Shown here one piece after another: positions 14,655 through 41,363 of a DNA stretch of 64,000 bases. Source of the DNA: Octopus vulgaris. Lineage: Eukaryota. Below the pieces are notes generated by a model. It did not search any database, had not been told where the DNA came from, and was given only the letters and a program-made list of their open reading frames with translations. The stretch spans positions 72,664,001-72,728,000 of the forward strand of contig OX597826.1 in assembly GCA_951406725.2 (NCBI GenBank), written 5' to 3'. How positions within the stretch are numbered: the first letter of the stretch is position 1; every line of letters begins with the position of its first letter. Both the position numbers and the translations under genes were made by a program.

Positions 14655-14701
<47 letters not shown>

Positions 14702-16805
14702 ATACACACATGCACATCTTTTATATGTATGTTTATATGTGTTGCTCAAACTTCAATCTAATATTTCTATAATCATATGTACTTAAAGTTGAATATTTTC
14801 TAACTTTTGAAGAATTTCTTTTACTCAAGTAGTATGTTTCTTGTGGCATACTTTGTCATTCTAGTCTGCTTGCTCACCTGTGAGTCTGGAGATGCCAGCC
14901 TCCTACTAATATGTCTGTTGGCTTTGTAACTTAATATGCCTCTTTGCTACTTTGCTTTAGCAATGAATCACATACTACCTTGATGATAGCCAAAGCTACC
15001 TCCAGCCCATCTTACTCCTTGTATTGCTATTATTTCTTCTATAGTGTTAAGTAGATTAGAGAAGGAGAGAGAGAGAAGTGGGGGTAGAGAAATAGAATGT
15101 ACATGTGTTAGCTACTACTACTGCGACTTATTAATAGTTTCTACAGTAAAACTATTTTCCAACTTGTGTTTGCCTCTAATTGATATGTCCACATTATAAA
15201 GTTTCCTTTCAAAATCATTATCATCATCATCATCATCATGTTGTTTTATGGCAAGAAACAAATACTAGTTAGAAAGAACATTTCTTGGATTTTTTCCATT
15301 ACTTCATTTTTCCTTCTACAGTTGGGGTATAGTATACTAGAGTAGTTAGTATAGCTGCCTGTTTTAATAATGTATCTGTTAAATATATTCTTGATTTCAT
15401 TTTTTACTATGTTTATGTGGTTAGCGATTTCCCTAGTTGGTTTGTTTGGCTTTGAGGTAAATCCAGTATTTAAATTGGTACCATTTGTTTTAAACATGTG
15501 TCAGAATTTGAAAGAATAGTTTAGAGATGAGATGTATGATGTATCCAGAGATATATAAAATAAAATTACTGACATAAAAATAACAGAGGACTGTGATAAT
15601 TGGGGAATATTTTATTCCTCTGAAGATAGAAATATTATTTAAAAGAAGAACTTGTCTTCCTTACCTTGGTTGGTCAACAATTGTTTGCATTTGACAGAAT
15701 CTTGCTGTCTTTATAATAAAAATGTTCAATGGCCCATATATATATACACACACACATAAAAAGGCCCTTAAAACTAAAATAACACCTCTCTTACTTTGTA
15801 TCCTACTTAAGGTTTTCATAGTGGACTTGCTTTAAAGTGGGCTTGTTGCATTTCAGATTTGAAATATTTTATTGAAATGAAATTACATAACTTTCCTTTA
15901 TATAATGTTCTTTGAAAGTCGAGTTTTTTTTCCTTTCAAATTATACCTGTATACCTTTAATCAGTTTACTGCCTAGTTCTACCTTATTTTTTAATTAGAT
16001 TGCATCTAGGTATACCTGATTCTTTAATTAGTTCATACCTAGTTACTAGTTATATCTGAACTCTTTACTTAGCTTAAATCTATCTACCTGTTTCTTTACT
16101 TAGTTTACTTGGTGTGTAATATAGGCAATGGTTTATAATAATTTACAAACTATATCACATTAGCAATACTTGTTTTTCTTTTCTTTTCCTGTCTCTGCAA
16201 AATACTCTAATGAAATTGCTATTTATTTCAAATGCACCTAGGTTGAAGAACTGAAGTGAAACTATCAGACATAATGTTTGTGATATTCAGTTATGGTACA
16301 TTACATTCTGAGTAGAAATCTTGCTGGGGTGAATTTTGCCTTTCATCCCTTTGGGGATTGATAAAATCAGGTAGTAGGGGGTTGATGTAATCAATTAAAC
16401 CTCTCCTCTCAAAAATTGCTGACCTTGTGCCTAAATTAGAAACCATAATTATTATTATCAATTTAATTTTTTTTGTCTGATATTATTCAACATTGAGAAT
16501 ATCTATTTACTTTATAGCTTTGATTCATTTTGTTTTTAGCAATTTGGTGAGGCATGTGTAAACTGTGTGTGCACGTGTGTGTGAGAGAGATTAGTAATTG
16601 AACTAATTAGTAATAAAGCCATTGTAGCTGATACTCTTTGCCAATTGCTTCAGTGTTTTCTCTTTGGTGACAAACGTGAGACACTTTAAAAAAAATTTGA
16701 CATCTGTTCCCAAGAATTCTGATTGTCAGCTGGTATACCATTCTGCCGGTACAATTCCTTCCACTTGTCTTTTAGAGAGATAGTACTGCACTCTGCTGAT
16801 AGGAA

Positions 16806-16889
16806 TGCTAACTACAGCTGGTTGAAGGGGACCAAATGCCTTTTGGATTGATACAATTTGGCCCGATTTCAACCAGCTACAGAGTAGCA
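16806..16889 (-). ncRNA. mir-133: microRNA mir-133 precursor hairpin (mature 3p ~16814-16836; 5p ~16856-16878)
   Basis: The reverse complement of 16814-16836 is UUUGGUCCCCUUCAACCAGCUGU, identical to the pan-bilaterian miR-133-3p. The opposite arm AGCUGGUUGAAAUCGGGCCAAAU pairs with it with a 2-nt 3' overhang and resembles known miR-133-5p. There is a basal stem (tgcta/tagca), an apical UGU right after the 5p arm, and a CNNC (CAGC) 16 nt downstream of the 3p end. Confidence 0.98.
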
Positions 16890-18399
16890 GTCTTAATGAT
16901 ATTGTGGAGTATAACAAAGATGTTGGGTGGAGAAAGACGTATGTCAAACAAACACAATGACCTGACATCACCGAGATGACCCTTGCATTTGACAAATTAC
17001 GTAGACTGAGTCAATGAAGTGATCGGTTCTTGTTGATAGATCCATTATATTAGCAATATATTAGTGTTGATAGGAAGACATGGGAATGGAGCTGGTCAAG
17101 AATCCAAAGGGTTGTTAAAGGGCTCACAGATATAAAAACCACACAGAACTCCCCTAATCCTCTCACTATTTTAACCGGCATATTTAAGTTAAAATTTAGG
17201 ATTAGCTCATCTGAAGGATTTCTTTCTTTAAAGACTCATCTATACATGCCAACACTTTTTTCCTTTTTTTAGGAAAACAAATTAGTAAAGAGCAAATTAT
17301 AAGGAGAAAAAAAGGGGGTAAAAATATCCGAAACAAAGGGCTTCGACAAAGTTAAAGTGAAACAACAATCGAGAGAGAAATAGAAGAATTTACACAAGAA
17401 AACAGCAAAAATACCAAAAGAGAGAGAAATAAAAAGGAATATTAGTAGTGACTGAGGCAAGGCAAAAAGTATCAGCTATTGGGCAGGAGTCATTTGGTAA
17501 AGCAAAACTGGCAGGTCAGTGCAAGGGACAAAATTTGCTGATGAATCTGAGACACAATCCATTCCTAAGTTCTTTTATGCAGTTCTAGATTTTACCCCTA
17601 CATTTTTTTGTTTTTTAAAGAATTTACCTCAAATTTTTGCAACTATCCTCTGCTGTCACATTATGACATAACATTTTTGTTTTGTAGATTTTTCTTTCTC
17701 TGTGAAATCTGACTGATTTCATGTGTGTGTATGTAGATGCCCACATGTGTATATAGATGTCTGTATATATATATGTATGTATATATATATAAAATAAATA
17801 CATGTGTTTACAAGGAGGTATATATGTGTGTGTGTGTATGAGTTGAGTTTAATCATCTACATCTGTGAAAGTTAATTATCTTAAATTAAATTCTGGTCTA
17901 TTTTATATATATTTTTTTGCCTTTTTATTAAGTAGGGGCCGGGTTATGTTATAGAAGTATTCCTTATTTTTGCTTACAGAGATTAATTTTACAAGGGTTT
18001 TCCACACCAAAATCACTCAGTAAAGAAGTTATAATTTGATTGAAAAGTTTACCTGTGTATTTGAAAGAAGGCCAGGTGGGTCACTCTTAAAAGAACAAAC
18101 GTAAATTTAAGGGATCATCTTAAGCTACTTAACATTTGACAATATTTAAGATATAGAGGCGATGTTTTAGGCACAAATATGAAAAAGCAACCGGTATAAC
18201 AAATGACATGCAGCTTCAATGATGTTTCAACTAATACATATGGGTTTACTACTTACTGTTATATCTTCAGCTATGTCCTCCTACCTCAACTCTCTCTCTT
18301 TCTCTCACCCTCTCTCTCTCTCTTTCTCTCTGCTCCTCCTTGACCTCCTCCTCCACTCCTCCCTTATTGATGAATATCCATTGACATAAGGGCATTTTT

Positions 18400-18880
18400 T
18401 GTTTTTTTTTTACCTTAAGTCATCCCTCTATTCTGCAGTTCAAAGCTTACCTGAGTAGCTTTGTAAGTGTGCTCTTGTAGTATATTGCACCCTTTATAGC
18501 GTGTACACCAAGTCTTGGGTCCAGTGTAACCATGACTTAAATAGACATTCTTTTCTCTCTCTCTCTCTTTCTCCCTCTCTCTCCCTCTCCCCCACCCTCC
18601 TCTCTCTCTCTCTCTCTCTTCAAGTTTCTATCTGATGCAGTAGTCATCGATGAAGGTTCTAGTAGTTTCCCCATATAATGCCATGACCATTTGTTGTTCT
18701 AAATATACTCCTGTAGCCCACCACTGCAAATATAGCACGAATTTCTGACATGTATGCATTTCTGTTTAGTAAGTTATGTAGATTGGAGTTATGCTGCTGC
18801 TGCTGCTTGTGATGGTGGTGTAGGTGAGATATGAGGACATAAAGGGGAGGTATCGGTGCTATATATATATACATATATAT

Positions 18881-18917
<37 letters not shown>

Positions 18918-20400
18918 CATACACATATGTATGTGTATGAATATATATCTGTATACACATACACACATATAATAGTGTGTGGTAGCTGCTCAAATTCTAT
19001 CTGCAATGATTCTGCTAGCAGCTTATACACCTATCTTTGTACCCAGATCAACTTCTCTCTTCGCACTACCCCATACCACCACCACCACCACCACCACCAC
19101 CACCATCTTGCCCACCTCTCTAAGTTGGCCAGGGGTGGCAGGCAGCTGGGGTGGTAGTGGGGGATGGTGGTGTGGTGATGTAAATCCTAGAACAAGGCAT
19201 TGTGAAAATACAAAAAAAAAAAATTTTTAAATATATAAAAAAATTGGCGCTGGTTATTATTGTCTTCGTACCCCCCCCCCCCCCGAGCACCACCCACCCC
19301 ACAGCCAATAACTCTATTCCATTTCTCCTCCTCCTCCTCCTCCCACCCCATCCTTCGACACCCAGAGAAGAAACTTTGTGGAGGATGCGGTGGGGGGGAG
19401 GGGTGAAGGATGGGAGGGTGCGAATAAAGGAAGTCGTGGAAGTGGGGTGGGGGTGGGGGGAAGGCAGAATCTTTGGTGAGATATTTGAAGTATTCTCTAT
19501 TTACAGATATTAAATGGGGGAAACGGGATGGGGTGGGTGGGAGTGGATGGTAGGGTATACAGCAGTTTTGGAGGTGTGGGGGTGGAGCGTCGAAACGCGA
19601 GCCATGCACGCACGCACACACGCCTATGCGTGTGCGCGCGAGTTAGGGCACGTGCCCTACCTAAGGTGGGCAGTGTGTGTGCTACGCCAGTAGCGGTGGT
19701 GGTGGTGGTGGTGGCGACGGTGGTGGTGATGGTGGTGGTGGTGGTACTGCTCTCGGGTTACCCTGGAAGTGTGCCTGAAGATGGTAGCAACATTATAACC
19801 CAGAGATTGCTGCCTTGCCATTCCAGTTTAGGCCTCCCCTTCAACTTATAAGGCAATGTCTATCATCTAGCACCATTCTAGGTAGTGAATACAGGGGGGC
19901 TATTTCTGCTACTACTGCTGCTGCTGTTGTTGTTGTTGTTGTTCTTTGCTGCTGCTGTTGATGATTTACTATCAGACTTTTTAGAAAGCTAGCTTCTTAG
20001 AAAACTTGCTGGATCCAACTTGTAGCATGGATGCATAAATTTATTTCTGATTCTTCCTCCTCCTTCTCCTCCGTCATTATCATTTCCACCCACCCACCCA
20101 TCCACTCCTCCCTACTTAGTACCACTCTTGTTGTTTTTGTTGTTGTTGTTACTGCAGGCATCTTCGCTGTGTATCTTTTTAATTTATTTTTTCTCCCCCC
20201 ACCCAAATCAGAGGAATAACTAGATTGATACCATTTTCCTTCAGTTAGTGAAGTAAACTTCCCTCTTTTTCTCAGTTTCTTTTTATTACTGTCTGTCTGT
20301 GTCCAGGGGTTGGTAGTCCCCCCCCCATCACTCACCAAGTCCTTTCAGCCACGAGCCCTTCTCTCTCAGTACTCCTCCTCCTTTTTCCCTGTTGGACTTG
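18400..20400. promoter_or_regulatory. candidate regulatory island between mir-1 and mir-133
   Basis: TE-free, GC/G-run rich, with retained CpGs (19588-19720). It contains a perfect 16-bp palindrome TAGGGCACGTGCCCTA (19644-19659) and near-consensus MEF2/CArG-like words. Function is inferred only. Confidence 0.4.
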
Positions 20401-20429
20401 AATTTAAAACTCAGATATCTGTTGCTATC

Positions 20430-20508
<79 letters not shown>

Positions 20509-21898
20509 CCAATAACGAGGAGTAGGAAACATTTATGTTAGGGTGATGGGGGTGTTGATAATGGTGGTGGTGGTGATGGTGGTGATGATGAATGTGATGG
20601 TGTGAGTGATATTAATGATGCTGATGGTGGTGATGGATGTGGATTGATGATGGTGATAGTAGTGTTATGTTAATTAGCTCCAGGCCTGTTATGATTACAT
20701 AGGCCTATAATCAAAAACGTTCTAACCGTGACCATCCCATCTTTTAATCAAACAGTGTATCTGAGACTACGTTTTTTTTTTTTTCGGTTTTTTTTTTTTT
20801 TAAATGCTAAGGTGTGATTTGAGAGATATTTAGCTGCTATTTCCAGTAGTTTAGATGACTGCATAGAGACTCACTTATCGGTAGTGTTGCTGCTGCTTCC
20901 TTATACTTTGTTCTTCAGAACACCAACTGTTAAATTGATTAAGTTACTTATATATTTCATGTCAATCTCTCCCCCCCCCTTGCCCTCTCATTAACTTCAT
21001 TAGTTCTACTTTAATTATCACAAATATCTTACCACACAATGGCTTTCATCTCACTCTGTTTCTATTACACACCACCTTCCTCCCCTACACAATTAATGGA
21101 ATGAAGTTACAACATATACTCTATTCTGTATACTACGCATACACATGACGTACCATACACATATGCACACCTACATATATACACATATCACACGTACTAT
21201 ACCACACACACAACACATACATCATACACACACTGTTCACACTAAATAAATAAATAAATACACACACACACACCACACTCACCACCAAGGGAGCTTCTAT
21301 GGGGATTGCTTGGTATGCTAGAAATAGCAGCCAAATCTTACTTAATCACATACCACTGCCCTAGAAAAATATAATGTGGTCCTGGGTTCCTGGCAGATAC
21401 AAATACAAGAGGGTTGTCATGGCTAGGTGGTCTTTGATCATTGGTCAGTTCATTGAAGGCTGACCAGGGTTTAAATACTAAGAACAATTATACCACATAC
21501 ATGCAAACGCATACATCAAATACCATGCGTCTACGCAATACATCACACAGATAAACACTGCATCACACACACACATACAAACAACACCACATGCAACACA
21601 AATACCAATCATTGCATACTGTAGCACACACTCACACACCACATGTTCACACTACTCATACACTACACATGCACCCTCACATACTTTACACGTGCAACAA
21701 CAAAATTAATACAACTTCAATTTTTGTTTCTAATTAATTCTCATCCCAGCTGGAGTCATTTCACTTTGTTTCACTAATTCCCACATGAGAGAGGCATAAC
21801 TGCCATCACACCTCTCCAATCATCCTTATAGCTCTTCTACCATATACTGAGAAGTCGTGGGATCCCTACTTTTCTAGTGATCCACTTAGGTTTTATAA

Positions 21899-22190
21899 CA
21901 TGGGTTCCCAACCATTTCTTTTACCTATAGACCCCTTTTATTCCCTTTTATTACTATTTTACTCAGGTGGATTCTCACAGCTATACCACTCTTTTACTTG
22001 TTTCAGCCATTTGACTGTGGCCATGCTGGAGCACCGCCTTTAGTCAAGCAAATCGACCCCAGGACTTATTCTTTATAAGCCTAGTACTCATTCTATCGGT
22101 CTCTTTTGCTGAACCGCTAAGTTACGGGGACATGAACACACCAGCATCGGTTGTCAAGTGATGTTGTGGGGGACAAACACACACACACAT

Positions 22191-22223
<33 letters not shown>

Positions 22224-22669
22224 TGACAGGCTTCTTTCAGTTTCCGTCTGCCAAATCCACTCGCAAGGCTTTGATCAGCCCGAGGCTATAGTAGAAGACA
22301 CTTAACCAAGGTGCCACGCAGTCGGACTGAACCCTGAACCATGTGGTTCATAAGCAAGTTACTTACCACACAGCCACTCCTACGCCCTATTATATATTTT
22401 AATTATTTATTACTAGGAATTAGGAAATTGTTAAAATATTTTGTGTATCTCAGAAGTATAACCAATTTATTGCACATAACTTAGCAGTTTGGCAAAAGAG
22501 GCTGATAGAAAAAATATGTAAGTCCTGGGGTTGATTCATTTAACTAAAAGTTTCTTCTAAGCAGTGCCCCAGCATGGCCACAATCTAATGAATGGAATGA
22601 GGTAAAGAAAAGCTAAAAGATAAATTTCAGGAAAAAAAATCTTATATGGAGCCCGGTTGAAAACCATTG
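21899..22669. mobile_element. hAT (Charlie-like) MITE with nested SINEs; family members ~31255-31505 and ~52065-52220
   Basis: Termini CATGGGTTCCCAACC...GGTTGAAAACCATTG, with 8-bp TSD-like flanks ttttataa/gtttataa. Confidence 0.75.
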
Positions 22670-22866
22670 GTTTATAAGAAGGAATAAAAAAGAGTGATTT
22701 GTTGTTATATTTATAGGAAAGATGGAGTGAGTTGGATTTGATCTCACTATCTCTTTGTTTGCCACAAAGGCAACGAATGAAGCTAACGTTACAAGGTTAA
22801 ATTACAAAAATGTTGGGGGTTTCTAATTTAAGTTCAGATCTCTCCAATGACAATGTTGTGTTTCTT

Positions 22867-22946
22867 GGTGGTGGTGGTGGTGGTGGTAGTAGTGATGTTG
22901 GTGGCAGTGGTGGTGGTGGTGGTGGTAGTAGTAGTAGTAGTAGTGA

Positions 22947-22982
<36 letters not shown>

Positions 22983-23100
22983 AGGTGATGGTGATAATGC
23001 TGGTGATATTGATGGTGGTACTGGTGTTGAAATAGTTGTGGTGGTGGTGGTGATGATGATGTTGAAATGGTGCTTGTGATAATGTTGGTGGTAATGCTGT
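22867..23100. repeat. (GGT)n/(AGT)n trinucleotide low-complexity tract
   Basis: Directly visible. It gives the poly-G/S/V/P/L ORFs. Confidence 0.95.
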
Positions 23101-23394
23101 TTAACCATGTGTAAATTCTGGTTGAACAAACCTATAATCAAAGCTTTCCAGCTGTGACCATCCTGTGTTTCTCTTAAGTACAGTGAACTCAGGACCATAT
23201 TATCTGATGAGCTCTCTTCTTTTCTAAATTGGAAGTGTATGATTTAAGAAATATTTGGCTGCTATTTATTGCAAGTCAAGTGACCACATTGGTGGTGGTA
23301 ATTATCAAATAGCATAAGATCCTGATAGGTGAGGTTCACAACTGTTTTAATTTTCTGGCTGTAGTCATTCCAATTTACCTGAGAAAGTATGAAC

Positions 23395-23725
23395 GTCCAT
23401 CCATCTATCCATCTTGTCTACCCACTATCCCTGGAAAGGTTGTAGTGGGATTAAATCTCCAAGCACCTCCTTCATAGAGTCCTATCAGAAGCAACTGGTA
23501 TTACACTTTCCGGCTGGACTCCCCCAAGCTTGACCTACTGAGGTTATGGATTGGATATTTCCAACCGTCTCGTTCTTAATCTACCCCTAGTCTACCCCAA
23601 GGTCTCCGGCCGGTTGGCTCAGCTTGAAGAATCCATTTTCTTCTTCTTTCCTGCAACAATTCTAGCCGCATGTCAGTTATATCCAAGCTGTTACCTCTCA
23701 ATGTGGAGAAGCAGTGGCTTAATCT
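23395..23725 (-). mobile_element. Rex3/Expander-like RTE-clade LINE 3' end
   Basis: Minus strand reads KPLLLHIER*QLG...AEPTGRRPWGR...RTRRLE and ends in (GATG)n-like GATGGATAGATGGATGG. Confidence 0.75.
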
Positions 23726-24162
23726 GAAGATTGATAATTCTATGCTATTTTAATATCAATAGAAACAACTAGATCTCTGTAACATTTTACACCTGCCTTT
23801 TGTTACTTATGTTATAGATGCCTTATAAACTGTATCTCTGATAATACTGTCAGTGGAACTTTTAGTGAATTCAAATCTGCTTCAAACTCACTTGCATCTG
23901 AGGTTGTTCTTTCTTCAGTTATATTCGCTTATAGTTGCAATCATTGGTATTAACTGAAAGTCTCTAGTACCAACAGCTCCTAAGACTTCATGCACCTGAA
24001 ATCATTGGTTGTTTATCTTTGCAAGATTTAAAACTACTGCGCTTTATTTTTCCAGAAAATTAAAAAATTTTTTATTTCAAACATTATTGACAACCATATT
24101 TGTGAAAATGCGTTGAGAGAGGTGTATACCTGTTTAGATTACATCACAATATTGGGTTAGAT

Positions 24163-24354
24163 CAGGGGTACCCAAACTTTCTAGACCATCGACCCCTTCA
24201 TGGAATATTTGACTCCTCATCAACCCCCAGTCATGTACTGGAAAATAAATAAATAATAATAATAATTAAGTAGATGTGCATTTATCGACCCCCTTGAATA
24301 GTTCCATTGACCCCCCACCCCCGAGGTCAATATTGACCACTTTGGAGACCCCTG
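24163..24354. mobile_element. hAT (Charlie-like) MITE, 192 bp
   Basis: TIRs CAGGGGTACCCAAA / TTTGGAGACCCCTG and an 8-bp TSD ggttagat/ggtttgat. Confidence 0.88.
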
Positions 24355-25709
24355 GGTTTGATTAAAAACAGGAACTTCACAAAAAACAAAAAATCTAAAT
24401 TTTTATAATTTATTTGTAAATATAATATGACACAGAATAATGATAACTGTAAGTTTTCAACTGTGAAGGCATGTGGCTGAGTAGTTAGGTTGTTTCTCTC
24501 ACAATTGTAAGATTGTAGTTTCAATTCCTGGACTGGGTGGTGCACTCTGTTCTTGAGCAAAAGACACTTTATTTCATATTGTCCCAGTTGTAAATGAAGA
24601 CCAGCAATAGTTGGGAAGTTAACCTTGTGATGAATCGACGTTCTCTTCAGGGAGGAGAGTTATTGTCTCAGTCACTTATAAACCATGGAAACCATGCTAT
24701 ACTGTGGCCTTAGGACCCCTAAGGATCATTACAAACCAAAGACCCTAAATTTTTAATAGAATTGTATGGAACTAGTCATTATGTATTGCATCTTGTCACT
24801 TCATATTCAGCTCCTCTTAAAGAAATGTTTGTGCCTACTAATAAGCATATCTTGTATTATGGGTGTGTTTGCTTGTTATTCCTGATGGGTTCTTTGCTTT
24901 TCTGAAAAAAAAACCCCAAAATACCTCTAATTGATGCTGAAATTTTGCTCTCAGAGGAAGCTGTAATGACAACAATGACTTTAAAAACAGCTACTAGACA
25001 GTCTCTCAAGGCTTAAGTTGATAAACATATGTCACTTACTGTCAAAACAGACACTAAATAGTAGGCCTGTGGTGTAGCATTTGTCTTTTAATAATAAAAC
25101 CCTGATTGTTGTTGAGAAAAATCATTGTGCAGTTGATGAAGACCTATGCAATAATTGAGGCTGTCAAAAAGTGGCACTGTTTTCTTTTAAGCAAATGATT
25201 TACCCTTCTAACTGGTCTGAAATCCATAGCTTGTGTGTTCAATCAAAAGCACAAAAATTAATATTAAAAAGTAATAAAGTATGAAACCAGTAATTAGAAA
25301 TTTTATTCTGTGACATTGTCGTTGATCTGGATCTGTTAATGCTGTTATGGATGCACTATAGTGTAACGTTTGTGGTGCTGCTTTGCATAATAACCATTTA
25401 GAACTCCACAAATCTCTCTGCTATCCTGGTCCTACAAGGTCGACGCATTTTGTTAGAGTCCAAAATCTTATGTATTCAGCGGGTGACTTCACACACATTG
25501 TTTCTGGATGCCATATATACCAAAATTTAAAGCAATGGTCAAGCTAATGAACCTTCTACACACTTACATTAGAAGGCATTAGATTGAGAAAATATTCTAA
25601 GATATTCTTCTCACTTGATAATTTGTATTGTTCTAAAAATAATGGTTGTGATTTGTACATTTTCTTTTAAGGATGTGCTAATTTCAAGCAATAATAACAG
25701 TAATAATGA

Positions 25710-25918
25710 TAACCCTTTCTACTGAAGACATGAGGCCTTGAAATTTGGGGGGAGGGGATCAGTTGATTACATCGACCCCAGTGGTACTTAATTTATCGAC
25801 CCCAAAAGGATGAAAGACAAAGTCGACCTCAGTGGAATTTGAACTCAGAATGTAAGGACGGGCAAAATGCCGCTATATATTTTGCCCAGTGTGCTAATGA
25901 TTCTGCCAGCTTGCCGCC
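25710..25918 (-). mobile_element. family B SINE
   Basis: Reverse complement is collinear with 11226-11440. Confidence 0.88.
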
Positions 25919-26726
25919 ATAATGATGATAATAATAATAATGATGATGATAATAAAATGATTGAATCTCCATGCGAGTCTGCAATTGGTGTTTGTCGTTG
26001 CAATAAAGTACTTTATAAACTGCTAACTTTGGACTGTCTTGCCTTAAACTGACTTACCTCCTGAGGTATTCCTGCTTTAGTTACCTAAACACATTTCTCC
26101 TCCTCTAATTTCTTATAGATTTGTGTGTATATCAAATATTGTATCTTCATTATTGGGCAGTTATAGAAAATTGTTTTGGGTGTTTCAGGACCTGTCTGTT
26201 ATGGCTTCAAATCACAATGACTTTTATTCAGTTTATTTATTTCAAAACCTTGCTATTCTAGGTTCAATTCATGATAGGGTTGATTTGGTATAACTGTTTC
26301 AGGGCCTTATTATTCTGGGTTCAAATCCTGCCTTAAATATAAATCCATACCGGTGTTATGTGATCCACTCAGATGATTCATGGTCTGCTACTGAAAAATT
26401 AACCTTGTGACTAATTAAAAGAAACTATTAGTTTTGTCATTCCTAGTTCATTCCACTAAATTCATCATAGATTTTCATTCTTCTGGGGTTGATAAAATTA
26501 CCTGTCATGACCTGGATTTGATTCAGTTGACATCACCAATTCTTGAATTTAGTTATTTTGTGCCAGTGGTGGAAACAATTATTATCAAACTCATTTACAG
26601 TGTTGAAGTTGTTGCATAACCCCAATCAACTCTATAACATTGTTGATGATATTGTGTTGCTCTGACCAAAATACCTTTTGTGTAGGTGTAGTGTTGTTGG
26701 CATTGTAGCATAACCCTGATAATAAT

Positions 26727-27098
26727 AAAACCAAGAGTACACAGAGAACACAAACCTCTGCCAAAGCGACACTAACGTCCTCTCAATGATTAGCCAGAGA
26801 TGATTTTTAAAATGAGAATATCTGAAATAAACTTGAATGCTCTCACAAACAAGAATACTAAAAATGAACCCAAATGCTCTCAAAAATTAAGTAAAAAAAA
26901 CAGGAAAAATAATCCAGAATCCTTGTCCAGTACCGGATTAATCCCCAAATCTAATCAGTTTGTGCCAGTCATGAGGCCAAGTATCCGTGAAAGTTTCATC
27001 CGAATCCATCCAGCAGTTCTTGAGATATCTTGTCCACAGACAAACAAATAAACACGACTGAAAACAATACCTTTGCCTTAGTGAAGGCGGAGGTATTA
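26727..27098 (-). mobile_element. Helentron-associated non-autonomous element (HINE/DINE-1-like)
   Basis: The 5' end on the minus strand is AATACCTCCGCCTTCACTAAGGCAAAGGTATT (sub-TIR hairpin). It is followed by a GTTT/GTCT tract, CAAGATATCTCAAGAAC..GGATGGATT..ATGAAACTT, a 3' sub-TIR GGCAGAGGT and T-rich flanks. Confidence 0.8.
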
Positions 27099-28376
27099 AT
27101 GATAAAATAACCTTTATTGTTGGTGTAGTGTTAGTAGTGTGAAGATTCACAGTCTTGTGGCTAGGGTGTTATATTCACGATCATAGCATTCTGGTTTTGA
27201 TTCTTGAACAGGGAGGTGCATTCTGTTCTTGAGCAAGACACTTCATCCGATATTGATCCATCCCACTCAGCTATGAGTTCCAGCAATTGCTTGGATGTGA
27301 CAGACTGGTGTTCCATCCAGGGAGGAGTGCTGTAATCTCAATCACTTATACACCATAGAAACTGTGTTAAGCCCTGGCAGAATGAGTCCTGGGGCTCATA
27401 ATAAACCTGTGTATTGGTTGTGGTGGCATTGTTCAGAAGTCTTGATTAAACAAGCCTCTTATATTGGTGTGGTATTAGTGGTCCTATAGCAGTGCAGTGA
27501 AGACATGTGGCTTAGTGGTTAGGATACTCAGCTCATGATTGTAAGGCCACGAGTTCAATACCTGGCAGCATGCTGTGTCCTTGAGCAAGGCACTATATTT
27601 CATATGGCCCTAGTCCACTCAGTTGGCAAAAAAGAAAGGCACTGGTAATTCAAAGGACCAACTTTGTCACATTTTGTGTTACACTAAATCTCCACAAGAA
27701 CTACATTAAGGGTACATATGTCTTTGGAGCTTATCAGTCCCTTGCATGTTGATTTCTCGAGCAAGCTGTTCTGTTGATCAGATCAACTGAAACACTTGTC
27801 ATTGTAACTGATGGAGTACCAATTGAAGTGCATCCTCAATCCAACAAACCTGTAGTGTTGATGGTGGTGTTGTATAGTCCTAATCCAGTAAAATTATTAC
27901 ATTAGTGTTGTCATGTAGCCCTGCTCTCCCGCCCCCCAAGTATATTGTGTTGATATAGTATTAGAAGTAATGTTACTGTAGTGTAGTCTTGAATAAACAG
28001 ACTTGCAATGTCCAGGTAGTGTTTAAGTGGTGGTGTTAGGTGTTACTCTGCAACCCCGGTCAACCGTGACTGAGTAAGCTTGTAGCTTATATCTAGTCAG
28101 TTGTCATTGTTTATATTCAGGTAAGCTTTAACCTAAGATCTTAGTCGTTCCCATTATGACCATCCCATCTCATTGTTTATAGTGCATCTAGGACTACATC
28201 TAATGTAGTCTTCTTTAAGACGATAGGTTGCCATTTAAAGGTTGCTATTTACAGTAGGTTCAACAATCTCATATATGCTCTCTTGTTGGTTCATATTTAG
28301 CCAGCTGGATAGCTAAGATAGAACCCATAGACCTGATTCTCCAGATAAACTATCTAATTGAGGACAGTACAATCAC

Positions 28377-28963
28377 CACCATCATCATCATCGTTTAACG
28401 TCCGTTTTCCATGCTAGCATGGGTTGGACGGTTTGACCGGGGATCTGGGAAGCCAGAAGGCTGCACCAGGCTCCAGTCTGATCTGGCAGTGTTTCTACAG
28501 CTGGATGCCCTTCCTAACGCCAAGGGCATCCAGATTGTAGGGCGACCTGCTGTGCTTGAGGAGACCTACTGAGTCAAGTTCATCAACAACAGAATAAAAA
28601 TCAAATGGAAATCTGGCAGTGTTTCTACAGCTGGATGCCCTTAGCGTTAGGAAGGGCATCCAGCTGTAGAAACACTGCCAGATTTCCATTTGATTTTTAT
28701 TCTGTTGTTGATGAACTTGACTCAGTAGGTCTCCTCAAGCACAGCAGGTCGCCCTACGATCCAAGGTACTTTTGAATGAGCTGGGGCCGGTTATGCGAAT
28801 CTGGTGTAGGATACAGCCGTGAACTCACTTTATTTGCCAGGTCTTTGCAGTCACAGCATATCTCCAGAGGTCTCGCTCTTTCGTCATTGCCTCTGTGAGG
28901 CCCAACGTTCGAAGGTCATGCCTGACCACCTCATCCCATGTCTTCCTGGGTCTACCTCTACCT
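28377..28963 (-). mobile_element. 5'-truncated RTE LINE with an internal fold-back inversion
   Basis: Minus strand 28826-28962 encodes GRGRPRKTWDEVVRHDLRTLGLTEAMTKERDLWRYAVTAKTWQIK* (RTE ORF C-terminus). The 3' UTR ends in (GAT)n at ~28380. Confidence 0.92.
28537..28757. repeat. perfect 106-bp inverted repeat with a 9-nt spacer
   Basis: 28537-28642 is the exact reverse complement of 28652-28757 (checked base by base). The spacer is AGCGTTAGG. Confidence 0.97.
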
Positions 28964-29044
28964 ATATATAATAGGATTTTTCAAAATATTGAATTGTTAT
29001 GAGGGCCTATCCAAGTAAAGTAAATATCAAAGGGAGTCCATATG

Positions 29045-29280
29045 CGGGGGTGTGACTTAGTGGTTAGGGTTTTGGACTCATGATCGTAAGATTGTGGTTT
29101 TGATTCCCGGACCGGGCAACGCGTTGTGTTCTTGAGCAAAACACTTCATTTCACGTTGCTCCAGTCCACTCGGCTGACAAAAATGAGTAATCTTGAGATG
29201 GACTGGTGTTCCATCTAGGTGGGGCATTTATACGCCATAGAAACCGGGAAACTGGCCCTTATGAGTCAGCATGAGAGGCT
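29045..29280 (+). mobile_element. tRNA-derived SINE, family C; related copies ~24467-24720, 27150-27410, 27503-27825, 58380-58610(-)
   Basis: TGACTTAGTGGTTAGG (A-box), GGTTTTGATTCCC (B-box), then 'gttgtgttcttgagcaaaacacttcatttcacgttgctccagtccactc'. Confidence 0.8.
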
Positions 29281-30109
29281 TTTCAGTGGACACATAAGGT
29301 CAGATTTCAGGGCTGTCAGCAATGGAGTAGAGTAAAATAGAACCAGTGGAGTGAGGACAGTTGCTGTTTCTCTACACATGTCATTGATGGTTTGTGTCCC
29401 AGGCTAGAAGGTACATAAATGGTTTCAGATTTAGAACATTCTACTAAATCTGGCCCTGGTGCCGGTGGCACGTAAAAAGCACCCCTACACTCTCGGAGTG
29501 GTTGGCGTTAGGAAGGGCATCAAGCTGTAGAAACTCTGCCAGATCAAGATTGGAGCCTGGTGCAGCCATCTGGTTCGCCAGTCCTCAGTCAGATCATCCA
29601 ACCCATGCTAGCATGGAAAGTGGACGTTAAACAATGATGATGATGATCAACCGTCTTTTCTTTGACATTCTTACTTGAAATTACTGTAGAAGGTATTTTT
29701 GCAAAAAAAAAAAAGAAAAAAAAAAACCTAGTATACTGACCAAATTCATCATCATCATCATTGTTGTTGTTCTGTTGCCTCACCAAAAATGGTTTGGCGG
29801 TGGGAGTGGGGAGGCTCTTCAACATTTTTGAAAATGAAAGTTCCATACAATAAAATCAGTGTTGGTTTTGTAAGGAGTGTCTCCTTTGGTATTTTCATTT
29901 CTACTTGACTTTCTAACATCATCCATATTTGTATGTGTTTGTTCTACTTACATGCATTATGATACATGTGTGCATATGCACACACATACACACGTCTTAC
30001 TTGTACAAACGTTCAAATTTGAAGAAACTATCCCACTTTTATTCCCTAGTAAAAAGAAATGGGCCTAAAATTGAATGATTGAATGTATATATCATGTATA
30101 CCCTCTGGC

Positions 30110-30140
30110 GTGTGTGTGTGTGTGTGTGTGTGTGTATGGA

Positions 30141-30187
<47 letters not shown>

Positions 30188-30256
30188 CCATACACATATA
30201 TATATATGTGTATGGATGTATATATGTATATGGATGTATATATATGTGTATAGATC

Positions 30257-30289
<33 letters not shown>

Positions 30290-30384
30290 ATATATATACA
30301 CACATACATCCATACACATATATATATATCTGTATATATGTATATGGATGTATATATATGTGTATAGATCTATATATATATATA

Positions 30385-30419
<35 letters not shown>

Positions 30420-30420
30420 T
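30110..30420. repeat. compound TG/TA microsatellite with a ~120-bp tandem duplication
   Basis: Two copies of 'catccatacacatatata...ggatgtatatatatgtgtatagatctatata'. Confidence 0.9.
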
Positions 30421-32485
30421 CTAACATCTGTTTTTCCATGCACACGAGGGTTGGACAGTTATTTTTTTAGTAAGTGACAGAGCTGTTGAAATGTGGCCCA
30501 AACCCCTTATGTGTATACTCAGGAGTTCTAAATGGGAGTGTAAGATTGGTCCCAGGGAGTAAGGGTGTGTCTTGTTTCACCCCACTTCCATCATTGTTAT
30601 CACACTGTGTTCAGCGCTTATCATTGAAAAATGATATTTTTTTTTACCAACTTTAATTAATCCAACGATGCCAAACCTGATGAAATATTATTCTACATCA
30701 TTCAACCATTTAGTGTATGTGTGTGTGTGAGAGACAGAGAGAAAGGGAGCATATAAGGAATTATGCTAAATATTATAGCCATTTTTTATACATGTGAACG
30801 TTTTAGAATGGTATTTATTTGGAATTTGAACTAAATGGTATAGTTGTTTCTCATATTTAACATTATAACCATTTATTATATATTTGGTGATGTAATATGA
30901 TTAGGCTGGTTGGCTAAAAATGCATTGCGAGTTGATAGTGATGGCGTTTACATTATTTTGTCTATATAACCCCAAGTCAGACCTGATTGAGCAGACCTAT
31001 GATCAAAGGCATTCCACTGATAATCATTCCTTTTTTAGATATCATGTGCCCCACCCTTGGGCTATATTATCTAATCTGCCTTTGTATGACTGTTGGGTGT
31101 AATTTGAAGGAGATTCAATTGCTATTTCTAGCAGGTTTAGTAACTATATAGAAGCTCCCCTTGATTCTCTTATGATTTAGGCAGGAGGGTGAGGGCAGGA
31201 CCCATAGCCTTTACAAACCCATTGTTCAGATAGATATATTCAGTAGAGTTTGACCAGTGGGTCTCAGTTTTTTCCCCTTATGGACCCCTTTGATTCTTAT
31301 TTTACTCTACTGGACCCTCATAGCCATTCAGTACTTTAAAGAAATCCTATTATATTTTCTATAATTAAATGTTATTAGGAATTGCATGAGAAAAACTTGT
31401 TAAAATATTTTACTTATTGCAGAAGTATAGCCAATTTATTGCACAAAAATTTTTTCAACAAAATTTGATATCGACCCCTAAAGGTCATATGGTTGAGAAC
31501 TACTGAGACCAAGGAGAAGATGATGGCTGATAAGATGCCTAGTCATTTTCTCCCAATTCACTGACCATGTCTCCCTAACATAATGCACTATTACACATCT
31601 TCAATCACCCCATTCAATTGTCTACATCCACCACCCCATGTTCAGTGTCATGCAGTATTGGGCATCTTACACTCTTTTCCTCATTAATTCCCATACTCAC
31701 TACCATCTACCATCACACATTATGCATACACTACATTTAACCCTCTACATTCAGTGACCATGTTTCATTGCTGTACAGTGTCGCATATCATATACACACA
31801 CTATATAATCGTTCACATTCACTGTTCTTGTTTCACTACTATATACACTTATGTAACTTATAGCTCTCTACCTCTGCTTTTTTTTTCCCTACCATACACC
31901 ACCTCATGTGGTTCGCTAATTTTACTGACCAAGTTTCATTTTGGTACACCTTCACACATCTTATACACATAACAGAGTCTTGTATTTACTCTTCATGATT
32001 CACTTCTCACATATACTTTGAGTGTATATGTGTGTGTGAAAGTTGAGGGTTTGAACTATTTATCTTTTATTTGTTTCGGTCACTAGTCTGCAGCCATGCT
32101 GGGGCACCACCTTGAAGAATCTTTAGTACTTAATCATTTTATTTTTAAGCCTGATGTTTATTCTATCGGTCTCTTTTGTTAAACCACTAAGTTATAAGGA
32201 CATAAAAGCACCAACACCAGTTGTCAATTGGTTGACAGAAAGACACATACACACATATACAACGGGCTTCTTTCAGTTTTCGTCTACTAAATTTACTCAC
32301 AAGGCTTTGGTTGACCTGAGGCTATAGTAGAAGCTACTTGCTTGGGAAGCAAAATTTTTACCACATGGCCACGACCACTATATATATGGATATGTATGTA
32401 TAAGTGTGTTATGTTACTGAGGGCAAGTACCGGCATGTAAGTAATTTAGTACATAGATATTTGTGTGAATAAGTGTGTGTGTGTG

Positions 32486-32540
<55 letters not shown>

Positions 32541-32719
32541 CATATATACACACACTCACTATTTACTAGAAATGCAGTGAACCAGTGATTGGTCTCTATA
32601 TAGATACATAAAACATATATATATATATACATATATATACACCTACACACGTGTATTTGTATACAAATATATATATATATATTTGCATACAAATACACAG
32701 ATGTGTGTATGTATATATA

Positions 32720-32772
<53 letters not shown>

Positions 32773-33130
32773 TCCTTACTCATATCACTATCGAACCAAG
32801 AGTTTAATTACGGTCTATCCACAGCACTTACTTAGTGTTACTTACCACTCTTTGAGTTTTAGCTGCCAATACCTCATATATATATTTGTTGCAGTCATTT
32901 AACTGAGACCATGCTGGAGCACCACCTTGAAGGGTTTTAGTCAAAAATCGACCCCAGAACTTGTTTAAAGCCTAGTACTTATTTTGTTGGACTCTTTTGC
33001 CAAACTGCTAAGTTACAGGGATGTAAACACACCAATACTGGTTGTGAAGTGGTGATGGAGGTGGCAGTAAACACAGACATACACACACTTAGATATACAT
33101 ATAGATGTGTGTATATATATATATACATAC

Positions 33131-33187
<57 letters not shown>

Positions 33188-34191
33188 GATGGACTTCTTT
33201 CAGTTTCCATCTACTAAATCCACTCACAAGGCTTTGGTCAGCTTGAGGCTATAGAAGACACATGCCCAAGGTGCCACGCAGTGGGACTGAACCTGGAATC
33301 ATGTGTTGGGCAGCAAGCTTCTTACCACACAGCCATGCCTGTACCTATGTGTGAGTGTGTGTGTGAATGTGTTTCTTCCTTTCTTGGGCCCTCAACACCT
33401 AATGGAGTTATATGGGTACTTTAGTTTTGTTTTTGGGTATTTAAAATATGGTGGAACTCCAGCCTTACTAGGTTTGAACACTCCCAATTTCTTTGAGAGA
33501 GAGAGAAGAATCAACCCCAGTACTAAACTTATCCAAGGATAAAGGCAAAGTTGACCTTAGCAGGACTTGAACCTAAACCACTTAGAGCTGAAACAAATGC
33601 CACAGGACATTCTATTCAGTGTCCTAACAACTTTACCAACTCTAAAAGACAGACTAATAGAAACTGAACCATCACATGCTGGGAGACCATTGATTATGCT
33701 GGGTAATTCAAAATGAACAGCATAATTTTTGAAATATATTCATTACAACACTCACCGGTACTATTCATTTTGAATTGCCATTTTATAGCCCATCTCTCAT
33801 TATATATGTGTATATGCACATATGAATATACCATGTGCTGTTGTAAAATTCTTAAGTGGACCAAGTTCATGAGCTATATTTAATTCTATATAAAAATCAA
33901 TTTTACGGGGACTTGTGTTTTTAGGGAGCACATTATCACCAAGACTGAGTCTTTATGCTAAATAATCTTATATACACTGCTATTGTTGTCATCATTATTT
34001 AACATCCATGATGATAGCTGTATATCTAAACTATGTATAGCATAGTTTGAGGTAATAGATCCTAAGTGCACATTTAGCTCCAAGTTTATTCACCTTTAGG
34101 TGGCTGTTGGTCTCTTTCAGTTGATGCCAAAATCTATGATTTAGCCAATATGGATGGAGTAAAGTATTCTTAGTCTGTATTATATTTTTGA

Positions 34192-34232
<41 letters not shown>

Positions 34233-37200
34233 CAGTCCAACCCATGCTAGCATGGAAAACGGACGCTAAATGATGATGATGATGATATATATATATATAT
34301 ATACATACACTGCAAATTGCTATGTATAATATATTACATTTCTGTCTGAAGAAATGTGTGTGTGTGTGTATATATATCCACAGTGCAGGCATAATTAAGT
34401 TAGGAAGTTTACTTTGCTATCACTAGGTCTTTGGTTCAGTCCCAGTGTGTGACATCTTGACCTTTATATAATCTTGAATATACAGAAACTGTGTGGAAGT
34501 CCATTGAATGGATTGCACATATAATTCAAACGGCTACTTTCGTCTGAGGATTATATTGAAAGTACACATGCCTGTGGAATACTCAGCTGTTTAGTGTCAC
34601 AATACTATGAGTAAGTAGTCTGGTAGTTTGGTTGATTGAACAGCTGGTATAGTCACCATGGAAACTGACGAAAGACACATCTACCTTTATTTTTACACTC
34701 ACCTAAACATACCAAAATCACATATACTTGATTTTCTGGCATATAAACATGTTTTTTGTATTTTTAAATGTATCAAAAAATTTCCCTGTCTAATGTGGCT
34801 GTATTATGGACCAAAGACCACGTGCCATAGACTAGAGAGATGGATAAGCATAATTCTACTAGGCCCAATGATAGTTATTAACGATTAAGTATCAATAACA
34901 AGCCAAATTATCGGTCAGAATCAACTTAGTAAAAATTGCTTACAGTACTCTGTGAGTTATGTAGGAAGGTTACACCTTCTCACATCTCCTTCCTCATGTA
35001 CCATGACTTGTATTATTCAATATGTTTATTACCTTTAAGAAACATTTTTTTTAATTATCTAAATGAAAAATTCTCCTAGGAAGATAAAAGGTAAGTTAAA
35101 TTTCCATCTGCCTGCCAGCTATTTGCATTGAGTGGGAGAAAACAAAAACCATAGCAGTAATGCTCCACCCAGGTATTAGATTGAATTAACACAAAACATC
35201 ACACCTGACATGGCAATTCTCCTGGCTAAAAATATCAACTACACAGGTAATCTTAAAGAAAATAAAGCTGAAATACACTACTCCTAAAATATATATTTAT
35301 AAGTTTATAATTTCATTGTGTACTACCACAAGTACTCATTTGGCATAAACAGAATAATACACTTCCTCCTAGAAAACAAGTGTATGATGATGTATTCTAA
35401 ATTTATTTTTTTCCACAAAATATACTTGTGTATAATAGGAGTGTCCTTTTTGCCAGCAAAATTCAGTATATACATACATGTTTCTGTTTAGTGCCAGGTT
35501 AACCCTATGATCAAAAACCTTCCAGCTGTAGTCATCCTGTTGTTTTCTTTTATTTTTCTTAAGTATAGTGCATCTAAGGATTGTATTATCCCAAAGTATT
35601 CTTTTTATGATGGTGGTAGGATATCATTTGAGGGAGATTTGGCTGCTATCTCTGGCAGGTGGGATGACCAAGCAGGTATATGTTAAGTCAGAATGTTTAT
35701 GCTTAGATCTTGAACAGTGAATGATACTATCAGTAAAGTATTGAATACCTTGTGGTCATTTGGTCATGTTCCTGTGTTTGAATCCCACCCATAGTGACTC
35801 TGACTCATTCTTTTGAGGGTTACAAGTACCAGTTAAGTACTGGGGGTTAATATCATTTATGATACTCTTGAAGGTGATGCTGTGTATTATGCGGCTGAGT
35901 TACACATACATACAGGGTTATAGAACTACTTAGTTGTTGATTGGTATTTGGTTAATCCAGTAGGTTGTGGAAACTCCTTGGACTCATCAATGACAATACT
36001 TCTACTGAAGAATTATTTCATCATAACACACTATGTCCGGTACATCTTCAGCTCTGATGTTGACAGTTGGTGAAGTGTTGCAATGACAGTGTAGACTTAA
36101 TTACCTAATTCATTTTCTCTGTCTCTCCCCCACTTTTGGTACATGTTTCCCATTATTTGTTGAGGGTTCTTCAGGTCACCCTAACATCGACATCCAGTTA
36201 GATTTTTTCCACTTACCTCTTACATAACTGTTCATTCTCCAATAAACACTTTATGTACATAAGCAAAAATACAACTTTCGTGTATTTTTTCCCAGTTTCA
36301 CAAATTAAAAATTTCTGATGTAAATTATGAAGGATATGCTATACCTAGTTAACTGTTGTTGCTTACCCGCCAACAACACATACACTTATCTCTCTCTCTA
36401 TTATACACTCATATATAATCTAATTGCACTAAATCAAATCTATTTTGTGGAAGAGATGTTATTTTACTTTTACTCATCGAACCAGAAGGAACTGAGTCTC
36501 CATTTTGATGATATTTTTAGGGTGAAAATACATCTTTTCATTATCCCAGATAGATATTTCCTTCCATAGACTGTTTCCTTATTAGCCTCTAAAAAACACC
36601 TTCCTCTTCAGAACATTGTATTACAGTCATCCATCAGCTTTTTCTTGGGGCCTAAATGCCCTCTCTCAGTCCGTTGATTGCTGTTTTTACATTTGCAGAG
36701 GTCATCAGCAGGTATCATTCATAGAATGTCTTGGATAATAATTCTACTTCTGTTGGCATCCATTTTCCTCTGCCAGTAGCCTGCGATAGAATATGAGTCT
36801 AGCATTGAGGGTGAGGAAAATACTTCTTTTAGTCACACAGAATCCCTGACTGCTTATGCCAGTGAACTGTATCTATCTCCCTACATTTTCAAGTCATTGG
36901 ACCTGGCTGCTGAGGATTCAGTATAAGGTTAGTGATAGGATAACATAGTGCCGACCATTCAAACATTATGTTAGTGCCAACCTCCACAGAACGCAAATAC
37001 TTCTCTAATTTTTGCAAGAACAACTAAGATTTTCAATTAACATCATTTATAGAGTAACTTTCACTTGGGAGGAAAAATTTAGACAGACATGGTGGCAAGA
37101 AAATATATTTTCTTATAAAAACCTATTTAGGTCAAATGAATAATATTAAGTTTCTCTGGTGTTATATAAATTGTGGCTAAGTGAGATTTCTGAAATATAT

Positions 37201-39195
37201 TTTACCAAAGATCCTGAAAAGTATATTTTTTTAAAGACAGGGTGAAAAATAATAATAAAAAACAATCAGTTAATTTCAATTAAGTTTATTTTATTCTTCA
37301 GTTGATTATTGTCTGGTATATAAGAATGTTGCAAATAATTAACTTCAAGTGTGTCAAACCTTGAAGTCTATGATTTTTATTGGATGAAAATCTTCACTGC
37401 CGCCTTTGCTTCTTACCACACTACCCTGAAAAGACTTGATGCCAAGAGAAATGCTAGAAATGAATCATAAAGACATACAGAAAACTCTAAAACATTGTGC
37501 CGGGTGGAGTAGTAGAAAGAACGAAAACTTCATTGAAATACATCAAACTTTTGAGACGTTCCTTATAATGAAAACTTCTATACTACATATTGAATTTTAT
37601 TGAAAAATGTATTTGCTTAGTGTTAAAGGGAGAATGGAAATGGAAGTAATAATGACGTCTTTTTTTTGTTATAAATCTTTACATTTTTGGCAAAGACAGA
37701 TTCAAAGAATTTCTTTACAACAAAAATCTGCACATAATTTTAACTTCAAATTAATTTCATATGATTTATCTTAAATTTTATATTTTTAAATATTTCATTG
37801 TAGAACTTTTTTTCAAATTTTACATCTTTTGTCTAAGAAACCTACCAACTTTTAATAAAATTCTGAACCCCAAGCATTATTTTAATGAATATAATTAAGT
37901 CATTTTTTTTTTCTTTAATGACTGATCATCAAATTCTGAACTGTTTGATGGTTCCTTCCTCCTCCCCCCTCTTTATTCTGTTGACTTGAAGAATAAATGG
38001 CAGGAGGAAAATTGGCTGAATCTTCTTAAAACAGTAGCCAGACAATCTATGTCTAAATTTAGATGTATGTAACTTAATCCTGCTAGACACAACTTCATGC
38101 AGAAACCCTGCTACCATCTATATCAGCTTGTGCTACCTAGTCTTGGAATTTCTTCCCCCTCCCTCCTACACACCCTTTTCTTCAGAGTTCCTTCAAATAT
38201 TTCATTGTACACTAACTTTTATGCTGACTTTGTGAAGTAGATAAAAAGATAAGAGAAAGTTTGTTCTGTTCAAAGAGGCAATGAAATGGAATTCAAATTC
38301 AAATGGTACTGGACTTCAGTGACTGGCATAGAATTTTATTTGGGTTGGGCTATATGTGACCTCTAGCAAATTCTTTTACTTCTCAAGTGTAACTTATTCT
38401 TTTCAGCATATTTTTAAAGGCATTTTTTTCAATATATCTTTAAATATATTTAACTTATAAAAAAAAACCCAGAAGTTATACCTGAGAAAGTTTTTTTCGA
38501 TATTTTTTAAATCTTAAATCTGTAATTTTCTCAAAGTAACCAATTGTTGGATTAAAAACTTGTAGTTTCAATATTAGCATGTAAAATTTCCTATTTGATT
38601 TTCTTACTTATTTTTTAGAATTATTTCAGTAAAAGCTTTCCAATTCTTCCATACAAGGTAATAATGACAGGGTAAGATTGAAGAGAAATTTGTCTACTGA
38701 AATGCATCATGGGAGTTCCACATCCAGATTATTGGGAAAGATAAGCGTTCAGTAGCTTTAGAAATTAATTTTTACTTCATCTATTTAAACTTTTTTTTCA
38801 AGATTAGGAAGTTTGTGAACTTAACTAAACCAAATTAATATAGGCTTAGGATTTTTTTTTTCAGAATATTGTTATAAAATACTTTTGATAACTGAAATAA
38901 AATATTTTAAAAGTCTTTGAAAAGATTTCTAAATTTTGGCACATATAGACACACACACACACATGCATTCACACTTTCTCTCTTCCTCTCATTCTGGTAA
39001 GATATTTAAAATGTCTCACAAAATTTTGATTTGTACATAGAGAGTAGCCACATCATCTGTTAAAACTCACCTTATCTGAGCATAATCTGCTGCAGGGAAT
39101 TCATGAAGAATATGGATTAGTGATGTATCATAAATTTACCGCTGGAATAGTGGATAACATTGGTGTCGATTGGTTTCAGTGTTGTTGCACTTCCA

Positions 39196-39273
39196 TGCAC
39201 AGAGAACATACTTCTTTACATTCCATACTTGGAGTAAATCTATGAGATAGTAAAGAAGAATGTGACTTGTGCA
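39196..39273 (-). ncRNA. mir-1: microRNA mir-1 precursor hairpin (mature 3p 39204-39225; 5p 39241-39263)
   Basis: The reverse complement of 39204-39225 is UGGAAUGUAAAGAAGUAUGUUC (miR-1 family, seed GGAAUGU). The opposite arm ACAUUCUUCUUUACUAUCUCAUA pairs with it with a 2-nt overhang. There is a basal stem (tgcaca/tgtgca) and a CNNC (CAAC) 17 nt downstream. It is on the same strand as, and upstream of, mir-133, which is the conserved order. Confidence 0.98.
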
Positions 39274-40122: not shown

Positions 40123-40155
<33 letters not shown>

Positions 40156-40439
40156 AAACATATTATATGTCTGTACAGTGATTAATTAGTCTGTATTCAG
40201 TTTGGGTATATTCTCATCCTTTTATCTAATTTCAGTTTCTTATGGAGATTGAAGAAAATTTTGGAATTAGTTTTAATTCAAACTTTCTCTTACTTAATTT
40301 TTTTTTTTTTTTTTTTACAAAATGTTACACTTTAAACCAGAGATTATCACTTTTAAATTTGTTTTCCAAAGTTTCTACCGGATTTAGAACCTTAAATACC
40401 AGGCTGGAAGTTCAAATAAAATAACTATATAACTTCTAT

Positions 40440-40592
40440 TTCAATATACATTTATATCTATCTATATTTTTATATACATACATACATACATACATGTGTG
40501 TGTGTGTGTGTGTGTGTAAATACACATACACATATATACGTACACTCTCTCTCTCACACATATTTATCTACTTATATTTATATATATCATCA

Positions 40593-40647
<55 letters not shown>

Positions 40648-40836
40648 CATATATACACATATATCATACACACACACACATCTACGTATAATTATATATA
40701 TAACATATATACACATATATTATACACACACACACACACATCTACGTATAATTATATATACAACATATATACACATATATTATACACACACACACACACA
40801 TCTACGTATAATTATATATATCATCGTGTGTGTGTG

Positions 40837-40875
<39 letters not shown>

Positions 40876-41167: not shown

Positions 41168-41205
<38 letters not shown>

Positions 41206-41285: not shown

Positions 41286-41363
<78 letters not shown>

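Follow-up and report, generated by a model that had tools for sequence, protein, structure and literature searches.

Within a 64 kb stretch of the Octopus vulgaris genome (contig OX597826.1, positions 72,664,001 to 72,728,000; called the window here, with positions counted from its first base) we found mir-1 and mir-133, ancient microRNA genes of muscle, on the minus strand, both antisense inside a single 76 kb intron of the E3 ligase gene mind bomb 1 (mib1). This nesting, which we regard as close to certain, makes the locus a cephalopod member of the known cluster of mir-1/mir-133 nested in mib1, and extends to a cephalopod the arrangement published for Bilateria, in which both microRNAs occupy an intron of mind bomb 1 in antisense orientation. 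The full reading that we favour, at a probability of roughly 55%, is that mir-1 comes mainly from its own transcript of ~2.3 kb while mir-133 is started separately; that the cluster is split into two transcription units is, taken on its own, an even bet. If it is, co-transcription would not be what has preserved the linkage for 600 million years; control DNA common to both genes, together with the host intron, would. The coordinates of all features are collected in Table 1.

Hairpins and host intron

A scan of the window with Rfam covariance models, to which the gathering cut-offs of both families were applied, returned two gathering-level matches in the whole 64 kb, one to mir-1 and one to mir-133. 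Along the minus strand mir-1 precedes mir-133 at a separation of 22.3 kb, and neither fold (z = -4.79 for mir-1, -6.44 for mir-133) was equalled by any of 200 shuffles, in agreement with an earlier note on this DNA that had described two hairpins on one strand in this order. Because the opposite strand folds nearly as well (z = -4.76 at the mir-1 locus and -5.15 at the mir-133 locus), the strand call rests on the letters of the mature arms, which are found only on the minus strand. As expected of the two families, the mir-1 3p arm has GGAAUGU as its seed, the hairpin to which it belongs being stable and leaving an overhang of 2 bases at the 3' end, and the mir-133 3p arm has the UUGGUCC seed region. 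A CNNC motif lies in register +17 past the mir-1 3p end (39204) and +16 past the mir-133 3p end (16814), upholding the claim of such a motif 16-17 nucleotides past the predicted Drosha site; the chance probability of CNNC in registers 16-18 is ~0.095 per hairpin. The apical UGU claimed for mir-133 was also recovered (positions 24-26 of the precursor microRNA, or pre-miRNA), and a basal UG, looked for at -14/-13 in mir-1, was absent. CNNC at +16 to +18 and an apical UGU are the Microprocessor motifs of a canonical animal microRNA gene. Genome-wide a single locus was found for each family, additional paralogues being rejected since there was none among the 65 mir-1 and 59 mir-133 candidates scored. 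Our mir-1 is of the same family as the Mir-1 previously recorded in an octopus, O. vulgaris itself, for which PMC9699675 lists Ovu-Mir-1_3p reads (Table S4) and records octopus Mir-1 from suckers and central heart (Table S5); the accessible supplements of that paper yielded neither microRNA coordinates nor Mir-133.

Table 1. Features of the mir-1/mir-133 locus (window positions).
Feature	Position	Strand	Remarks
mir-1 hairpin (RF00103)	39197..39272	-	Rfam 49.4 bits against gathering cut-off 45.6
mir-1 predicted pre-miRNA	39263-39204	-	mature 3p arm 39225-39204
mir-133 hairpin (RF00446)	16809..16885	-	Rfam 65.1 bits against gathering cut-off 55.5
mir-133 predicted pre-miRNA	16878-16814	-	mature 3p arm 16836/16835-16814
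mib1 intron interior	1..64000 (entire window)	+	intron of 76,172 bases, phase 2, GT-AG
Candidate pri-mir-1 core promoter	39586..39620	-	TATA at 39620, initiator-like heptamer, A at 39590 (30 bases on)
Putative mir-1-only primary transcript	37270..39590	- (from motifs)	~2.3 kb unspliced; contigs X3, X11, X5
Consensus splice donor	39066..39072	-	~130 bases 3' of mir-1, unused in three long contigs
Candidate polyadenylation site	37245..37295	-	tandem AATAAA at 37295 and 37290, then U-rich stretch
CpG-richest patch of window	19451..19800	.	GC ~0.6; as many as 16 CpG per 200 bases (mean 1.8)
Longest interspersed-repeat-free stretch	33348..46712	.	13.4 kb, rank 1 of 249 gaps, centred on mir-1
Third-longest repeat-free stretch	16475..21987	.	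5.5 kb, mir-133 and its 5' side
Repeat-rich spacer middle	21981..33347	.	4172 of 11367 bases interspersed repeats, plus microsatellites

As vertebrate miR-1-2/133a-1 sits inside Mib1, the whole genome was scanned for the Mind-bomb SH3 family. Of its 18 matches, two fall ~33 kb before the window on the plus strand, in an exon that matches MIB1 proteins (best, the argonaut MIB1 P0003, at 92%) and also the MIB1 of the PDB (E 1.2e-28). When P0003 was mapped onto the window and 200 kb of flank, its residues 1-1035 fell into collinear plus-strand exons, which extend 78.7 kb ahead of the window start and 135 kb beyond it. The domains follow one another as in the E3 ligase Mind bomb 1: MIB-HERC2/ZZ first, then the SH3 repeats, the ankyrins and the three RINGs. 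The window is flanked on the plus strand by 22 of these exon matches at 75% identity or more, and tblastn found no MIB1 exon inside its 64 kb (best E 1.4). The earlier note had taken the pair for the main functional signal of the window and missed the host: the entire window is mib1 intron.

This intron runs from G000:C13:72658594 (~5.4 kb before the window) to C13:72734765 (6.8 kb after it); its GT donor ends the RGNP exon at window position -5406, its AG acceptor, at 70765, precedes the next exon, and the codon that it divides, in the part of mib1 encoding the ankyrins, is that for Ser in RGNP-S-AMR. Eleven of the 13 other members of the P0003 protein cluster continue RGNPSAMR unbroken, and four of these are Logan proteins from contigs of 3.7-4.1 kb, consistent with spliced mRNA. 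Of the remaining two, one is a cuttlefish MIB1 model that halts at RGNPR, as read-through of the donor would have it, and the other a 91-residue fragment without the RGNP motif. Identity is high enough to put the genome with the octopods.

The RGNP motif is present in 89 of 120 MIB1 homologues. In 71 of these SAMR follows, 2 differ by ordinary substitutions, and 16 break off or diverge at the Ser codon, these broken models including snail, clam, tubeworm (an annelid), brachiopod, horseshoe crab, fish and sparrow. An intron boundary at this codon is hence implied in fish and bird models, which bears on homology with what we take to be vertebrate intron 12. Since MIB1 models break elsewhere too (at residues 509 and 575), the RGNP/S breaks show a shared position of the intron and not its content. 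By the count of coding exons here, the host intron is the 13th coding intron. Automatic MIB1 models often break at the RGNP/S codon because of this intron, and those ending at it include P0006, P0015, P0043, P0049, P0068, P0075 and P0124, from several invertebrates. As a result, annotation frequently divides mib1 into two genes, which may account for the 'two Mind bomb genes' near the flatworm microRNAs.

The spacing of mammalian miR-1-2/miR-133a-1 is a few kb. Published accounts place the pair antisense in MIB1 intron 12 of bee, beetle, frog, chicken, mouse and human (PMC2500172), and again in Mib1 intron 12 of mammals (PMC13513748, PMC12214129). Neither the nesting nor the distance therefore supplies the novelty of architecture that had been anticipated for this locus: an unusual spacing was rejected, as 22.3 kb is ordinary: miR-1-1 and 133a-2 are ~10 kb apart in mammals and in birds, and distances of 17, 22.2, 37.4 and 40 kb are given for four fish (PMC4177693); the Drosophila pair is separated by over 10 kb (PMC3763532), and flatworm spacers measure 11.7-34 kb (PMC4405270). 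The octopus and vertebrate clusters (PMC13513748, PMC12214129, PMC4177693) share both families, their order and the antisense position in a Mib1 intron, and vertebrate MIB1 models break at the identical RGNP/S codon; the octopus pair differs in being single-copy with a 22 kb spacer, and in contigs that hint at a mir-1-only unit where mammals are bicistronic. With the insect pairs in or beside MIB1 (PMC2500172), and with Drosophila (PMC3763532), it has in common a loosely spaced protostome pair tied to mind bomb, in a different phylum. The flatworm microRNAs likewise have Mind bomb models beside them, and their authors doubt co-transcription; these authors describe neighbouring Mind bomb genes, however, whereas the octopus flanks are exons of one gene (PMC4405270). 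Other sources treat the cluster as ancestral, or as co-transcribed in mammals (PMC3145563, PMC13686912, PMC8397000, PMC12257675, 10.1101/2021.09.01.458616). We found no paper on mib1 nesting of mir-1/mir-133 in a cephalopod, most subscription papers and MirGeneDB lying outside the search.

Transcription of mir-1 and mir-133

Contigs from four of 24 listed runs, one from each of four studies, were placed on 34400-40040. In three of the four a block of 2.0-2.5 kb contains mir-1 with the hairpin uncut: single contigs of X3 (37284-39290, depth 90) and X5 (37385-39869, depth 183) span mir-1 unspliced, as do two contigs of X11, a run with a second organism label (37273-39524, depth 25-49). Cover in all three is near zero at 35.9-37.2 kb, and further down is made up of repeat-derived pieces alone. 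Nothing else in the genome matches this block, except at a simple repeat of 35-51 bases. Its low ends in X3 and X11 (37284 and 37273, 11 bases apart) adjoin a tandem AATAAA on the minus strand, and no plus-strand AATAAA was found at its other end (39200-40100). At that end the consensus TATA and initiator motifs pointed to a candidate pri-mir-1 promoter, close to whose initiator-like site an X1 contig terminates (39593). An E-box stands nearby at 39696; scans for E-box, MEF2 and CArG motifs were not used as evidence. AATAAA is common locally, with six copies in 36800-39200, and paired TATA and initiator matches number six on the minus strand of the 64 kb (the candidate being one) and five on the plus strand. 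As the motifs are common and the contigs blind to strand and ends, these data give a weak hint that mir-1 is made from its own short transcript of ~2.3 kb. The consensus donor near 39070 could start a minor spliced form that reaches mir-133. As a side observation, all four runs have an insertion of 25-26 bases at 38244-38250 that the genome lacks, and the assembled individual may have a deletion allele.

On the 5' side of mir-133 the CpG-richest patch of the window lies 2.7 kb upstream on the minus strand. From its composition, the CpG-rich and repeat-free stretch at 16.5-22 kb is a candidate for a separate mir-133 promoter or enhancer; the patch itself could be a promoter or, by analogy with the intragenic MEF2 enhancer of the mouse (PMC13513748), an enhancer resembling it. 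A TATA-like word (~18497) and a consensus donor (18452) were also seen between the patch and mir-133.

If both parts of our preferred reading hold, the locus might work as follows. Judging from what is known of the two families, RNA polymerase II (Pol II) would transcribe both microRNAs in muscle, opposite to mib1, Drosha/DGCR8 cutting would be aided by the CNNC and UGU motifs, and the 3p guides would repress muscle targets. Motifs and contigs together would put the start of mir-1 near 39590 and its polyadenylated (poly(A)) end near 37270, and mir-133 would depend on a second start or an enhancer within the 16.5-22 kb stretch, a proposal made from the sequence itself. What would then hold the pair together is the host intron, in which the two genes lie along with the DNA that controls them.

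Several points weigh against this reading. None of the 24 runs is recorded as RNA, so that the four used are RNA by our guess and lack a DNA run for comparison; their contigs reveal neither strand, start, end nor level, and cover 5.6 kb of the 22.5 kb, at the mir-1 end only. The X5 contig exceeds the proposed start by 280 bases and falls 100 short of the proposed end, and matches to TATA/initiator and AATAAA are frequent in the AT-rich DNA around them. In X1, short contigs at depth 1-12 (outside repeat-inflated bins) cover nearly all of 34400-40040, a patchy cover that could be read-through, mib1 pre-mRNA or DNA. That a long primary transcript is missing says little, because such transcripts are cut during transcription and are scarce in poly(A) libraries. 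Lastly, the equation with vertebrate intron 12 depends on the position of the RGNP/S codon, and by coding exons the octopus intron is the 13th.

It is conceivable, with a lesser chance that should still be taken seriously, that both microRNAs depend on a single promoter at ~39.6 kb. Most transcripts would then end early, at the poly(A) site, and carry mir-1 alone, and some would read on or be spliced from ~39070 to mir-133, 22 kb away; this amounts to the proposal of the earlier note plus attenuation. Mammals as a rule make bicistronic transcripts (PMC13513748, PMC12214129), and the octopus pair preserves order and strand; a consensus donor lies directly 3' of mir-1, upstream of mir-133 there are pyrimidine-rich acceptor candidates (17508 and 17452), and X1 shows low cover past 37270. 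No donor joint was seen in the four runs, although a joint that exits 34400-40040 would appear just as a loose end (there are 82), and mir-133 has its own upstream island of ~5 kb, repeat-free and CpG-rich, although an intragenic enhancer of the mouse type would look alike.

We consider it improbable that an unspliced transcript of at least 22 kb is the main source of both microRNAs, the 2 kb block being then no more than a by-product that is stable, or a fragment of mib1 intron RNA from the plus strand. Flat contig depth does not define transcript ends, the contigs are without strand, and the intron is transcribed on the plus strand within mib1 (T-over-A skew in 22 of 23 bins). On the other hand, the block is limited to 2-2.5 kb in three studies with the hairpin uncut inside it, and it ends beside a minus-strand AATAAA, with no plus-strand counterpart at the opposite end. 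Against the single long transcript across many insertions that the earlier note had proposed, the contigs weakly favour a short unit for mir-1, and a minor long or spliced form is possible beside it.

Repeats and repeat-free islands

Interspersed repeats were defined as sequence copied elsewhere in the 264 kb examined (three or more copies), a measure that undercounts rare families. By this measure their share is 18.8% in the spacer, as against 22.0% in the intron and 24.9% in the 264 kb region, and simple repeats make up 10% of the spacer; a spacer rich in transposable elements, as had been described, was accordingly rejected. Its repeats are bunched in the middle (21981-33347), where there are 15 interspersed-repeat segments of 73-643 bases. 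Five segments, out of 16 counted, have Pol III A/B-box-like heads that mark them as short interspersed element (SINE)-like, and as two further A/B-box matches fall outside repeat segments the pattern of boxes and repeats is a loose one. SINE insertions may have widened the middle of the spacer harmlessly. Of the SINE and long interspersed element (LINE) insertions claimed for this DNA the SINE-like copies stand and the LINEs do not, none of the 89 open frames of at least 55 residues in the spacer matching Pfam (E<=0.01), although short or decayed LINE ends could escape such a search. A protein-coding gene in the spacer was rejected on the same result and because the 31 frames of at least 120 residues in the window are mostly microsatellite translations. 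The top 8-mers are microsatellite words as well, and a search for tRNA genes at the locus returned none.

Both hairpins lie in unusually long gaps between interspersed repeats. The median of the 249 gaps in the 264 kb is 435 bases; the longest gap is centred on mir-1, the second-longest contains the last exon of mib1 with the sequence past it, and the third holds mir-133. Together these three gaps make up ~10% of the region, and the presence of both hairpins inside them would be a ~1/100 event, from which we infer selection against insertions in the control DNA around both hairpins.

Further features of mib1

A plus-strand T-over-A skew, seen in the bins across mib1 already mentioned and in two bins before it, reverses sign in three bins from the mib1 last exon onward, hinting at a convergent neighbour gene. 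Within the host intron, recursive-splice-like acceptor and donor words occur on the plus strand at window positions 28121 and 61004, with weak pyrimidine tracts (13/20). Two vertebrate MIB1 queries left unmatched the exon at 106795-106890 (window scale), which encodes argonaut residues 743-775; some Octopus MIB1 isoforms are 31 residues shorter, suggesting that this exon is alternative. Finally, the other 16 of the 18 Mind-bomb SH3 matches in the genome fall on both strands within 1.8 Mb (C26:0.73-2.54 Mb), a cluster that suggests a tandem expansion of mind-bomb-like genes.

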